64,000 nucleotides of DNA. Source: Phoronis australis (lineage: Eukaryota; Animalia; Phoronida). The position numbers were made by a program, and so were the translations under genes. A model generated the notes under the pieces. It saw nothing but the letters and a program-made list of their open reading frames with translations. It ran no database searches and was not told where the DNA came from. The stretch lies in assembly GCA_002633005.1 (NCBI GenBank), contig NMRA01000894.1:1-64000 (forward strand), given 5' to 3'. Below are positions 36,783 through 41,218 of this stretch, piece after piece (within the stretch, counting starts at the first letter, position 1; each line of letters begins with the position of its first letter).

Positions 36783-37855
36783 GCTGTACCCTCTGCCCCT
36801 TGCATACCTCACAAGCAAAGAAAACATGAGCATTTGTGTGTGCAAACACAGAAGCGAAATATTATTAAACTTATGTCTAAATTTCTCGTTGTTTAGGAAT
36901 AGACTGCATTTTGATCTGTAAAGGATTATTTCGTGGTTGTGAGGAAGTTGGAACGATGTCAATGGGACTGGCAACTCTTGAGTAGTAGTATGCATTTTAA
37001 AGTTATTTTTTAGAGTGACGATTGAAGTGCTTTCTTTTATTTTGGATAGTAAAGAATTCCAGTTGTCATTACAAGTTAATATGGTAGATTTGCTGAAGGC
37101 TTGGCTGTGGGAAGATGGAATAGTGTGCATATTACTTTGCCGCAGTCCTGGTCTCGTGTTAGGTCTTTTGTAGGAGTCAAAGACGATTTTGTTTGAGTAA
37201 TTGTTTATGTTGGTTAAGACTATGAATGTATACATGGACAAGTGGAGTTTACGACGGGTTGCTAGTTTGGTCCATTTGAGATTGTTTAGAACCTTGATTG
37301 TGTTGGATCCTTTGTATGTCCCTGTTATGGCTAAAGCTGCTTGGTATTGTAGTCTTTATAATTGAAGAAGTATGCCAGCGTTTGCCGATTGGTAGATTAT
37401 GTCACAGTAATCTAGATGTGGAAGAACAAAAGACTTGAACAGAGTTTCAAGATGCATGGAGTTGAGATGACGAGAGACAATTCTAATTGGATTGTTTAAT
37501 TTTTGTACTTTGTGAACGAGTTTGCGACAGTGATGAGTAAATGTAAGCTTATGGTCGAATAGCAAGCCAAGGTGTTTGTGCGTGAACTTGTTGGGGATAA
37601 CTTCCCCATTGAGTGATAATTCCAGCACTGGATTTGTTTGGAATTGAGTATTATTAGACTTAGAAAATATAAAATATAAGATCAACACTTTTTTTCAGGT
37701 TTAAATTTTATCTTCCATTTGCAAGACCAGTCATAGGGTTTGTTTAGGTCAGTTTGCAATTGTAAGGAGTCATGGGGATTCTCTTTTGAGAATGGGAAGA
37801 AAATTGCAGCGTCATCAGCATGAAAGAATGTTTTAGAGTTTATTGTGTCTGGAGC

Positions 37856-38250
37856 TTACTTTAAACACTTGATGGAACTGTGCTCAACCGCCATCTTCAG
37901 TTGGTCTCCTACTGTCCTTAATGGTTTCGTCCCTAAACCAAGACCATCTCTAGTAGGCAGGACAACAGAGTTGATCACGCTCTGTCTGACGGTTGTTGGT
38001 GTTGTTGCTGTTGGTATTTCATCCAAATCCAACAAGATGCCTGTTCAGCTTCAGTGGCTACGTCGCATAGCAGAGCCTTCTTTCCTGACATGGAGACGCC
38101 AAGGCACCTCGCCATGGTAATGACCGAACTGGCCCGAAAACCCCGGCAGCCGACCTCCACAGGAAAACTCCAACATCTCCAGCCGTTAACATGACAGTCA
38201 TTCCTAAGGTCTGCATATTTCAAGTTCTTTCGCTCGTGTGCCTCTTCCTC
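37856..38250 (-). mobile_element. 5'-truncated HERO-type (restriction-like endonuclease) non-LTR retrotransposon nested in the LINE
   Basis: EEAHERKNLKYADL...GWRCWSFPVEVGCRGF...AEQASCWIW matches the C-terminal RLE region of HERO-clade elements. Followed by a ~120-nt structured 3' UTR. It splits the LINE RT between LYISD and APDTINSKTFFHADD. Confidence 0.82.
37884..37974 (-). ncRNA. Putative non-circularly permuted (pseudoknotted) hammerhead ribozyme
   Basis: Core CUGAAGA (37900-37894), GAAA (37928-37925) and GUC triplet (37944-37942). Stem I UUGGU/ACCAA, stem II GUCCU/GGGAC and stem III AUGGU/ACCAU all pair. Confidence 0.7.
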
Positions 38251-41218
38251 ATCACTGATGTACAATAAAAAGAGTAAGGGGCCTAGTACGCTATCCTGTG
38301 GTACTCCACCATTTACAAAACCTGGCGTTGATGAGCGAGATAAGACACCCTCTATTAGGACTTTGTAAGTTTGACATTCCAGATATGATTTTAAAAGTGA
38401 GAAGAGAGTTCTGGAAAAACCGTAAGATTGTAATTTATGTAGAAACAGATCATGGGGAACGGTACAAAAGCCGACGCAATGTCTAAGAATACGGATCTCA
38501 CGTTGTATCCTTGCTCAAACTGGAGGTGGATTTCATGTACAATTTCTGTAAGTTGTGACACAGTGCTGTTACCAGGCATGAATCTGAATTGGCGACGATA
38601 TATGAGGTTTTGTGAAGAGATGTGGTCAAACATGTGTTGAGAAATTATTTTTTCTAAAATTTTGGATAGGGTGTTAAGTAGACCTATGGGGCGATAGTTG
38701 GCAATGTCTGTTTTGAAGTTCTTTTTGTGTATTGGTATCATAACACCAAGTTTTCAGTTCAAAGGAAATTTTCCAGATTGTAGTATTTTGTTGTATAATG
38801 TTGTCAAAGGAGCTGTAAGCTCTCTTGCTATTATCTTAATCATTTTATTGGTTATGAGATTGGTACCGTTGTTTTTGTTTTCGACAATATTTTCTAGTAG
38901 TTTTCGGACTTCAGAAGGTTGGTCTTGTATGTCAGAGAGATGTTCTAATGTTCTGTTTGGGAATTTGGGAAAGCTTGTTGTTGGTGCAACGTGATTCTTG
39001 GCCGTGAAGTATTCTAAAAACAACTTTCTTTTTCAGCTTTGAATGATGCCTGAGTGTTGGATTCCTTTGAGTGGATGGTGGGGTATGAAGATTGCTTTAC
39101 ATGTCCTCAAATTTTGTTTATTATATCCCAATATTCCTTTGAATTTTTGGAGACATTGTTGATGTTGGAGATAATTTTCATCTTATAGTCTTGTTTCGTC
39201 TTTTTGTTTAGTTCTTCCATAGTGAGATTCAATAATACATGTACACATCGTTGTGTACAATGGAGCACCCAGGACAGATTTAATGAAAAACCGTTTGTAA
39301 TCATAAACTTACGTATTAAGCGCGATGACACTGTTACATCTATGCAGCAGTATGACAATAATAGAGGATGAACAAGAACTAGTTACAAAGACTGTGAACA
39401 TGTGGACAGTAGCACCCATAACTTGTAGTGCAGTGGTGAGGTATTGCACCAGTGTTCAATTTTTGGCTCAAAAGAAAGGCAAAATTGCCATGTAAGTCCG
39501 TAAAAGACATAGTAGCTATTGTTATTCTGTTATTGGTTGTAAAAATAGAACTTAGCAGTGCTATCGGAAAGCAAGGTTTGTTTGTAAACAGTCGTGTCCT
39601 TTACTGAGGTGCAATGAATGGTTTGTAATCATTTGGGTGTGCCCGCGTAACATCATGTACAAAGTATGCATGTATTTTCTCTTGACAAAACACCAGCAAA
39701 ATGTGACAAAACAATGGCAATAATTGCCATGAAGCTGAGTACCAACTTTGGCAGTGACAGGCCCTAACTGAAGTATATATGCGATGGATGGCAAAGGGAG
39801 TGAAATTAAGTCGACAGACTGACACCCAGGCCATTAAGCAGACAGACTGACGTCACCAAGGCTAAACACCAGTATAAAACTGGCCAGCCTACCCCCAGCA
39901 TCCGCGAAAAAATGGACCGCCGGGACACGAATAAAAATAACACTTTGAATCTACATAAAGACGCGGTGCACTATCTGGCACAAAGTTGGTGCCAAAATGG
40001 GTGCAACGAAAGTCTGTAGTGAAACGGAAGCGACTGAGTTCAAGTGAATTTTCCGTTTTATGTTATAGATAGCCCGAGTTTCATCTCAACAGGATATTGA
40101 CAGCGTCTCAGCCTGGCGTGATACAAATAAATCACTATTAATGGCTTCCAAAGGCAAAACCCAAATGGGACGTCGTGTTCAATTCAGCAAAACTTGTCTC
40201 TTGAAAGGAAAAGTTGCTACCGAGATATGCTGGTACAGAGCATTTGTATACAGGGAAAGTTATGAACCACTGTTCATCAGCATGCATTGATCAGGTTCAT
40301 CGGCGTTTACTCCGCAGCTGTAATGGTAAAATTAGAGGTAAGTAGGCGCCTAAAGCCCATCATATCACCGTGAGCACTGAATTTCAAAGTGCATAGAACT
40401 CGTACAACCTGGCTCACAAACATGTAGGCTTATTTTTGACTCACGAGTGGGTATTTACAAAGAGTCTGCAGTGGCGGATCTTGGTCGGAGAAAGAGGGTC
40501 AAACCACACCTATTTGAAGCCAAAGGTCCGCATGCATTTCAAGTGGTCTCTGAAAGGTGCCCATGCATACAGGACAATAGGAGTGTCGGGGCCTTTGCCA
40601 ACCCCTTTATCCACCTATGGTACATGTGACACCATAATATGGCACAATAACTGATTTCTTATCTTGAATTAATAAAAATTCCATTACTCCACGAGCATAT
40701 GCCTGGTGATAATGCACGCGGAAATGTTCGACAACAAATGCTGTCAGCATAGCGCATTGATGCAGTAAGGTATCGTATCGAGACTACGAAGAATTGTTCT
40801 TTCTCCCAATACCATTCACGGTGTCCTGTTTCGGTGACTTCGTAAGAAATTCGCAGTCAAAGCACAAAAATGTTCACAAAAAACCGACACACTTTTATCT
40901 TGGACCACTCGAGGTCAAGGACGGTACAGAAATTGCTGATGAGTTACGGAAGTACTCAATAGTTTTTCTACTGGCGGCTAAGTGTACAGTTATCGACATC
41001 GTGACTTTACGCGACAAACCGGCAATTTCCGTACCGTCCTTGACCTCAAGCGGTCCAAGATAAAAGTGAAGCACCCGTGGAATTTCAAGTCCGAAGTGTC
41101 ATACCTTGTAGTATTATATATAGTGTATTGGGGACGATCAGAAGCTGAGGACGCCTATGCTATATACCGTCACATGTCATATGATCATTCATACGCATAC
41201 GATACGGTGCGTAGACTA

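Follow-up and report, generated by a model that had tools for sequence, protein, structure and literature searches.

A probable hammerhead fold with a split core and an undescribed strand order in the 3' untranslated region of HERO-like retrotransposons

Can the end of a retrotransposon RNA be organized as a hammerhead ribozyme whose strands run in an order that breaks up the catalytic core? This question is raised by a retrotransposon remnant on the minus strand of a contig from Phoronis australis (GenBank NMRA01000894.1, positions 1 to 64,000; the window refers to this whole stretch of 64,000 nucleotides [nt]). An earlier reading of the sequence without database searches (the sequence-only reading) had placed a noncircularly permuted, pseudoknotted hammerhead-like ribozyme in the 3' untranslated region (UTR) of a HERO-type element, just after the stop codon of its open reading frame (ORF). 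Based on the comparisons described below, we consider it likely that this is a conserved hammerhead fold with an undescribed strand order, which makes up most of the 3' UTR of HERO-like elements and has its predicted cut between C37942 and U37941. Coordinates are window positions throughout, and RNA is written in the sense of the element.

A complete hammerhead core (CUGAAGA, GAAA, and GUC) is found on the minus strand within 37995-37885, where it takes up most of the 119-nt 3' UTR. After the stop codon, the RNA reads UCAACUCUGUU-GUCCU-G-CCUACU-AGAG-AUGGUC-UUGGU-UUA-GGGAC-GAAA-CCAU-UAAGGAC-AGUAGG-AG-ACCAA-CUGAAGA-UGGCGGUUGA. The letters and pairings put forward by the sequence-only reading are accurate: stem III (37947-43/37925-21), stem I (37941-37/37905-01), stem II (37963-59/37933-29), and CCUACU/AGUAGG are all complementary. 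Also as proposed, both the window sequence and its aligned relatives have the core in the order cleavage site, GAAA, CUGANGA, in a pseudoknotted fold, and the ORF remnant with its endonuclease matches places the site in the 3' UTR of a HERO-like retrotransposon of the restriction-like endonuclease (RLE) type. Nested folding of the site is uninformative (z = -1.0), as expected for a fold that is pseudoknotted. With three further helices, here named Pc, P0, and Px, the full order is 5'-Pc-P0-II5'-Px5'-[III3'-U-H^-I5']-linker-[II3'-GAAA-III5']-loop-Px3'-[I3'-CUGANGA]-Pc-3', with the predicted cut at the caret. In this arrangement, a complete hammerhead core is enclosed by the three stems (I-III), but the usual direct passage of the strand from A9 into stem II is interrupted; the gap is spanned by Pc and P0, which also hold both ends of the domain. 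Px connects stems I and II at their far sides, and a loop with the sequence signature of a kink-turn joins Px to stem III. Pc and P0 also place the beginning of the domain about 20 nt farther upstream than the sequence-only reading did.

Because CUGANGA and GAAA are short and the choice of helices is free, we considered whether a retrotransposon tail could resemble a hammerhead by chance. Relatives were collected in a way that was blind to the RNA: 78 metagenome loci were fetched solely by alignment of the endonuclease C-terminus (alignment A1), with which they share 31-64% identity. An exact degenerate DNA pattern had no matches in the metagenome contigs, and blastn of the window UTR against the 78 loci matched only L021 and L022 because the helices differ too much for sequence search; these two loci already carry compensatory changes. 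A descriptor of the motif was written as UH, a stem III of at least 4 base pairs (bp) leading into GAAA, a stem I of at least 4 bp leading up to CUGANGA, and an upstream stem II partner of at least 4 bp. On both strands of the window, this descriptor found a single site, the hammerhead at 37995-37885. It found the same architecture in 25 of the 78 loci, always on the ORF strand and always 3' of the ORF match, compared with no matches on the minus strands of the 78 loci, nor any when their 155,368 bases were shuffled 20 times.

The 25 descriptor loci are preselected for pairing in stems I to III; hence, a separate covariance model (R1) was built from a MAFFT alignment (A2). It encodes only P0, Px, and stem III. 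As stems I and II lie outside the model, their pairing was not fitted. Searched against the window and the 78 loci, it gave 62 matches at E <= 1. Sixty of these, one in the window and the others in 59 loci, have E <= 8e-4, and each lies on the same strand as the ORF, a short way 3' of it. The two weakest matches, L076 (E 0.074) and one on the minus strand of L051 (E 0.33), were kept in the resulting 62-row alignment (A3) and left out of the counts given below for Pc, the kink-turn-like loop, stop positions, and distinct helix versions.

Core bases are strongly conserved in A3. C3 is present in 57 of 62 rows, U4 in 59, G5 in 55, A6 in 56, G8 in 55, and A9 in 57; on the GAAA side, G12 is kept in 50 rows, A13 and A14 in 58 each, and A15.1 in 57; next to the cleavage site, G16.2 is kept in 59 and U16.1 in 53. 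The pair of U16.1 with A15.1 is U-A in 49 of 56 cells. N7, on the other hand, varies (U 33, C 14, A 8, G 2), and H17 is C in 27 rows, A in 19, U in 14, and G in none, with 2 gaps. At the level of sequence, a free N7 and a non-G H17 within an otherwise kept core are the signature of a hammerhead. The core is fully intact in 30 of the 62 rows; the remaining rows have single changes, which would be expected for copies in decay.

The helices are maintained by covariation. In A3, 89.1% of 1495 cells are paired, a level that none of 500 shuffles reached (67.7% paired), and only 33-46% are paired in controls in which the 3' partners were slid by 1-3 columns; these are counts of cells and not of independent events, since the rows fall into families. 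Both sides change in 25 of the 27 base pairs. P0 is 90.1% paired and Px 93.7%, with changes on both sides in 6 of 6 pairs of each and with 13 and 18 distinct fully paired versions, respectively. Stem II (84.2% paired) and stem I (82.3%) change on both sides in 5 of 5 pairs each. Stem III is 94.2% paired and covaries in 3 of its 5 pairs; the two innermost are a near-invariant C-G and A-U, as in known hammerheads. Every helix occurs in 11-18 distinct fully paired versions. A MAFFT-only alignment of 26 sequences agrees (88.2% paired versus 35-46% when slid). Across A3, homologues thus keep CUGANGA, GAAA, and NUH and their helices covary, the outcome on which the sequence-only reading had staked its claim. 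Given the strong covariation of all five helices (P0, I, II, III, and Px), the 25 descriptor matches in place against none in shuffles or on minus strands, and the 59 of 78 loci recovered by the covariance model, the view that this is a chance likeness is refuted, even though one of the five helices originally claimed was indeed a chance match.

That helix was the outermost one. Whereas Px and each of stems I to III covary in relatives, the fifth helix of the sequence-only reading, UCAACU/GGUUGA, is complementary in the window but not kept: 35.6% of its cells are paired in relatives, compared with 28-44% in slid controls. UCAAC instead falls in the loop and 3' strand of the P0 hairpin around the stop codon, and GGUUG pairs with CAACC at 37995-37991, in the last ORF codons, as part of Pc. 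In a fixed register, 261 of 378 Pc cells are paired (69.0%) over 42 distinct rows, compared with 38-46% when slid and 194 cells in the best of 500 shuffles; 6 of 60 rows were omitted from this count for contig ends or gaps at the anchors. The Pc strands are wholly different between families, e.g., UGGAGAUAGU/ACUAUCUCCA and UGUGUCCAGAU/AUCUGGACACA. The stop codon itself (TGA, 37977-37975) lies within the domain, and the first in-frame stop of relatives falls within Pc or P0 in 25 of 59 loci, upstream in 29, and downstream in 5, the upstream cases reflecting either decay or a true stop. In L003, a 489-codon open frame stops inside P0. We also observed that the P0 loop often reads UGAUC(A) in otherwise different families, which is more than a stop codon would require; a tertiary contact or a sequence context for termination may account for this.

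The loop between stem III and Px is also conserved. On its Px/III strand, N-G-A-G, the G is kept in 50, the A in 55, and the final G in 50 of 60 rows; the opposite strand has a U ending a 3-nt bulge in 52, followed by G in 52 and A in 53 of 60 rows. The window copy has a G where the bulge U is conserved (37914-37920). A regular helix (stem III), a 3-nt bulge, tandem G.A and A.G pairs, and a second helix (Px) match what we take to be the kink-turn consensus, a likeness of sequence signature alone. The features of the window copy are collected in Table 1.

Table 1. Features of the retrotransposon insert and its predicted ribozyme domain in the window (all on the minus strand)
Feature	Coordinates	Strand	Basis or remark
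5'-truncated HERO-like RLE retrotransposon copy, 395 nt	37856..38250	minus	last 91 codons, stop, and 119-nt 3' UTR
ORF remnant, C-terminal PD-(D/E)XK restriction-like endonuclease (EEAHERKNLKYADL...EVGCRGF)	37978..38250	minus	protein matches
Pc 5' strand (CAACCGUCA), within last ORF codons	37987..37995	minus	pairs with 37893-37885
P0 hairpin, ACAGAG 37985-80 / CUCUGU 37970-65, stop UGA in loop	37965..37985	minus	covariation
Stem II 5' strand GUCCU (10.1-10.5)	37959..37963	minus	pairs with GGGAC 37933-37929
Px 5' strand CCUACU	37952..37957	minus	pairs with AGUAGG 37913-37908
AGAG, nonbulged strand of kink-turn-like internal loop (Px/stem III)	37948..37951	minus	conservation and kink-turn consensus
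Stem III 3' side AUGGU (16.5-16.1) and C17	37942..37947	minus	predicted cut between C37942 and U37941
Stem I 5' strand UUGGU	37937..37941	minus	followed by 3-nt linker UUA 37936-37934
Stem II 3' strand GGGAC 37933-29 and G12 A13 A14 A15.1 (37928-25)	37925..37933	minus	core conservation
Stem III 5' side continued, CCAU (15.2-15.5)	37921..37924	minus	covariation
UAAGGAC, bulged strand of kink-turn-like loop (3-nt bulge, G.A, A.G)	37914..37920	minus	conservation
Px 3' strand AGUAGG	37908..37913	minus	covariation
Stem I 3' strand ACCAA 37905-01 and C3-A9 CUGAAGA 37900-37894	37894..37905	minus	core conservation
Pc 3' strand (UGGCGGUUG), directly 3' of A9	37885..37893	minus	fixed-register pairing counts
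3' tail of element, ending ...GUGUUUAAAGUAA, without poly(A)	37856..37884	minus	host frame resumes at 37855

How does this fold relate to known hammerheads? The sequence-only reading had suggested a member or a new variant of the permutations reported by Eckert et al. in 2023. A relationship is evident in the core and in the order of the cleavage-site (S), GAAA (G), and CUGANGA (C) blocks, but the two are not the same. As far as the available text of that paper describes it, type SGC (the HRIMA-1 motif and type-SGC variants) shares with the present fold this block order, a pseudoknotted core without a three-way junction, the same conserved core bases, a short linker from the 5' strand of stem I to the 3' strand of stem II (here 2-5 nt, 3 in the window), and an extra helix, here Px, that links stems I and II at their other sides (PMC10085705). 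The distance from H17 to G12 in the present alignment is 12-17 nt in 58 of 60 rows. In the same description, however, block C comprises a stem I strand, CUGANGA, and a stem II strand in direct succession, so that in type SGC the 5' strand of stem II directly follows CUGANGA, whereas here it lies upstream of the cleavage-site block (PMC10085705). A stem II in the type-SGC position was tried and rejected: with the strand directly after CUGANGA, 21 of 26 sequences could form no base pair, 4 could form 1-2 bp, and one could form 5 bp, while the partner that covaries in A3 is the one upstream of block S. Here, unlike in type SGC as described, A9 and G10.1 are bridged by Pc and P0, which hold the termini, and a kink-turn-like loop is found between stem III and Px. 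The present fold also belongs to a eukaryotic retrotransposon with the stop codon in the fold, whereas type SGC came from metatranscriptome contigs with hairpin ribozymes and from RefSeq and metagenome searches (PMC10085705). Since block C is split, the fold is not type SGC but a new arrangement.

Rfam 15 has no match at the site (E <= 10) and no ribozyme match in 12 of the motif loci (E <= 1), and Rfam scans of the window region and 31 loci returned nothing relevant. The literature searched, outside of which many subscription papers lie, contains no description of the split-core arrangement or of a hammerhead in such elements. In the one file seen of the supplement to Eckert et al. (PMC10085705), no eukaryotic host or retrotransposon is named outside the references, although its alignments may hold such sequences, and a 2026 paper cites just Eckert et al. 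and one other work for alternative hammerhead permutations.

Two other groups of retroelement ribozymes are useful points of comparison, again as described in the available parts of the sources. Type I and III hammerheads also occur in animal retroelements, in Penelope-like elements and retrozymes (PMC4209133, PMC7229834, bioRxiv 10.64898/2026.07.22.740005), where they cut multimeric transcripts to unit length and the ends are joined into circular RNA (PMC7229834, PMC4209133). Those ribozymes belong to the classical circularly permuted types; they are often minimal and work as dimers, and the elements that carry them, in terminal repeats or in tandem units, lack an RLE-type LINE (long interspersed nuclear element) protein; here, by contrast, a large single-copy ribozyme domain would be located in the 3' UTR of an autonomous RLE LINE. 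The ribozymes of R2 and other non-LTR (lacking long terminal repeats) elements that resemble that of hepatitis delta virus (HDV) are also self-cleaving and found in LINE RNA of the same R2 group, and they likewise cut near their own 5' edge so that most of the ribozyme stays on the downstream product. However, they are a different ribozyme class at the 5' end, where they free the element from a cotranscript (Eickbush and Eickbush 2010 and Ruminski et al. 2011, as cited in PMC13725137 and PMC13580325), whereas the present domain follows the ORF and is located at the 3' end.

We next turn to the elements that carry the motif. Within a family, the likeness between copies continues for 36-45 nt beyond A9 (about 75 nt in one family) and then gives way to unrelated flanks, without poly(A); thus, the ribozyme and a short tail constitute the whole 3' UTR, and the copies are dispersed. 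Flanks differ between copies of one family, fitting no specific target site. The elements have a single ORF with a reverse transcriptase (RT), a CCHC finger, and a C-terminal PD-(D/E)XK endonuclease (RPD...ELTVP...ERK..KY, with zf-RVT and RVT_1 found in relatives). A search with the L003 protein gave 328 relatives at E <= 1e-10, and the named ones among the best 120 of these come from teleost fishes, Branchiostoma, and bivalves (Pecten, Mizuhopecten, Dreissena, and Mytilus). A Tetraodon nigroviridis "polyprotein" has 50% identity over 98% of the L003 ORF, and our guess is that it is the HEROTn record. HEROTn, from Tetraodon nigroviridis, HERODr, and HEROFr are described as HERO-clade elements from fish that lack a target site (PMC2790886, PMC3636483; seen in part), and the clade is stated to include Branchiostoma elements as well (PMC7650587; seen in part). 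The HERO label for the element is plausible.

In 2 of 59 loci, L008 and L061, which belong to different families, copies are arranged head to tail: directly behind the tail of one copy come a 5' leader, shared by the two loci, and the N-terminal part of the next copy's ORF. This leader (about 1600-1760 in L008 and 1590-1760 in L061) reads YUGGGAAACCAGUGAC...GUGACAACUG.GAA...CAGAGACAG ahead of the next ORF and looks like a conserved 5' UTR start; Rfam had no match in L008. As a separate observation, six related loci (L014, L028, L029, L032, L033, and L053) have another conserved 3' UTR within about 0-200 nt after the stop (AAUAGCUGCAUGAGUGAUGGGCAC...GGUCGGAGAUGGGCAAGG...). It lacks CUGANGA and has no Rfam match at E <= 0.1, and it could be a different structured RNA in the same place.

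In the window, the insert encodes a protein that matches the C-termini of RLE elements. The insert interrupts the RT gene of another non-LTR element and is flanked on either side by RVT_1 matches. The frame of this host element reads LYISD before the insert and APDTINSKTFFHADD after it, resuming at 37855, and its RT domain (RVT_1, E 4.3e-11) is split exactly between the two. The host is a second, different non-LTR retrotransposon that extends on both sides of the insert (37356-39032, minus strand), and no target-site duplication is evident. The window copy is therefore a dead, 5'-truncated insertion with the ribozyme sequence still intact. The 64-kb window as a whole contains 745 N and has a G+C content of 38%.

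Among contigs from a DNA run labeled with the host species, 58 pieces align to the insert. Read as RNA, most of the depth has C in place of U37959, which converts a U.G of stem II to C-G, and G37891 is A in about half of the depth, which converts the Pc wobble U37989-G37891 to U-A. Two other organisms show hardly any change over 37907-37951, with diverged flanks on either side, and N7 (37896) is changed from A to U in them; the contigs of other organisms (X5, X6, and X7) cover parts of the stretch and are informative for those parts. The variation in the host species and in these two organisms falls on N7 or keeps pairs. Separately, some family copies break off at 37923 or 38013 in both DNA contigs and RNA reads and continue with the same foreign sequence (plus strand ...CAGGGCCAAAA), which is probably another repeat inserted in or joined to family copies.

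What might such a ribozyme do for the element? Intact copies would self-cleave after H17. The cut products would stay clamped by Pc (9 bp), stem II (5 bp), Px (6 bp), and stem III (5-6 bp), about 25 bp in the window copy, and this clamping would favor rejoining of the cut ends. A terminating ribosome would have to unfold the fold, the stop codon being inside it. By analogy, we tentatively propose, at less than even confidence, that the ribozyme may be used to cut longer-than-unit transcripts, such as those arising from read-through or from head-to-tail copies, and to rejoin the clamped ends, with the template keeping the whole ribozyme. The sequence-only reading had also proposed that the RNA that is copied is uncleaved or rejoined, and this agrees with A3, where H17 and stem I adjoin without an intervening column in all of the 62 rows. 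A bolder version is more doubtful: HERO-type LINEs of fish, lancelets, and bivalves might use a seventh, split-core hammerhead topology as a cut-and-rejoin device, with RNA closed into a circle as the template. An autonomous LINE would then replicate via a viroid-like RNA circle, and head-to-tail copies could be produced by rolling reverse transcription.

RNA sequencing of the host species bears on these proposals. Three transcriptome sequencing (RNA-seq) runs, of each of which about a fifth was examined, provided 83, 69, and 29 reads on the stretch; these reads come from a mixture of many copies, some of them dead, and include antisense RNA. For both read directions, coverage is unbroken across 37942/37941 and shows no pile of read starts or ends, which speaks against most family RNA being cut efficiently and irreversibly. 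Most steady-state family RNA is uncut, rejoined, or derived from dead copies or antisense transcripts.

A different explanation is that the domain is a hammerhead-shaped scaffold which serves solely as the recognition signal for the RT in target-primed reverse transcription and does not cut in cells. In R2-group elements, the protein binds the 3' UTR RNA to start reverse transcription, and in the present elements the motif with its 36-45-nt tail is the whole 3' UTR. Cutting would part the ORF from the priming end, no cut appears in the RNA-seq of the host species, and genomic copies always span the predicted site. Yet every catalytic base is conserved, N7 varies freely, and G does not occur at H17, which is the pattern of active hammerheads. 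Moreover, a scaffold harmed by cutting could lose its activity through one change, but distant families keep the full core. We regard a pure scaffold as unlikely for these reasons.

Still less probable is a role in which the ribozyme processes the 3' end of the RNA, as the sequence-only reading had proposed, or acts as a brake on expression, cutting the coding RNA from its tail without rejoining. About 35 nt separate the stop codon from the predicted cut, and hammerheads in the mRNA 3' UTRs of mammalian Clec2 genes reportedly lower expression. However, a cut at C37942 would remove an 86-nt tail that every genomic copy keeps and would not generate the 3' end of the element at 37856; the approximately 25 bp of pairing would keep the products together; and the cut is not seen in the host-species RNA-seq.

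We return to the conserved, split-core hammerhead fold, with cutting and rejoining as its tentative use, and to the observations that weigh against them. At least one core change is present in 32 of 62 rows, which are decayed copies. The motif is absent from 13 loci with enough downstream sequence. When the 19 loci unmatched by the covariance model were re-searched with filters off, deletion remnants of the motif were found in L058, L076, and L052, as well as in L064 by eye; the sequences of L024, L038, and L057 stop less than 40 nt from the protein match, six are the loci mentioned above that have the other 3' UTR, and the remaining unmatched loci gave no trace of the motif in this search. 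Known hammerheads have at most 1-2 extra nt between CUGANGA and the stems, according to the part of Eckert et al. available (PMC10085705), and for inserting two helices between A9 and G10.1 there is no tested precedent. In a viroid hammerhead, an additional nucleotide at this position is reported to be tolerated. The uninterrupted RNA-seq depth described above counts on the same side. So does the retention of both sides of the predicted cut in all genomic copies, from which it follows that the copied RNA was uncut or rejoined. Finally, the case for cutting and rejoining is built from the two head-to-tail loci among 59 and from analogy with hammerhead-bearing retroelements.

If the proposed fold is correct, the natural strand orders of the hammerhead would gain one more, which breaks the rule by which the six permutations were enumerated, namely that CUGANGA runs straight into stem II; the core would tolerate an insert of two helices between A9 and G10.1. 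The domain would also be, within the literature searched, the first self-cleaving ribozyme behind the ORF of an autonomous LINE, in elements whose named protein relatives come from vertebrate (teleost), cephalochordate, and mollusc genomes. Permuted ribozymes widen the range of what genome scans with classical models miss, Rfam 15 detecting none here. Since the stop codon lies inside the fold, translation and ribozyme folding would be physically coupled. And if the domain does cut and rejoin RNA, LINE replication would be linked to the circular-RNA routes of retrozymes and Penelope-like elements.

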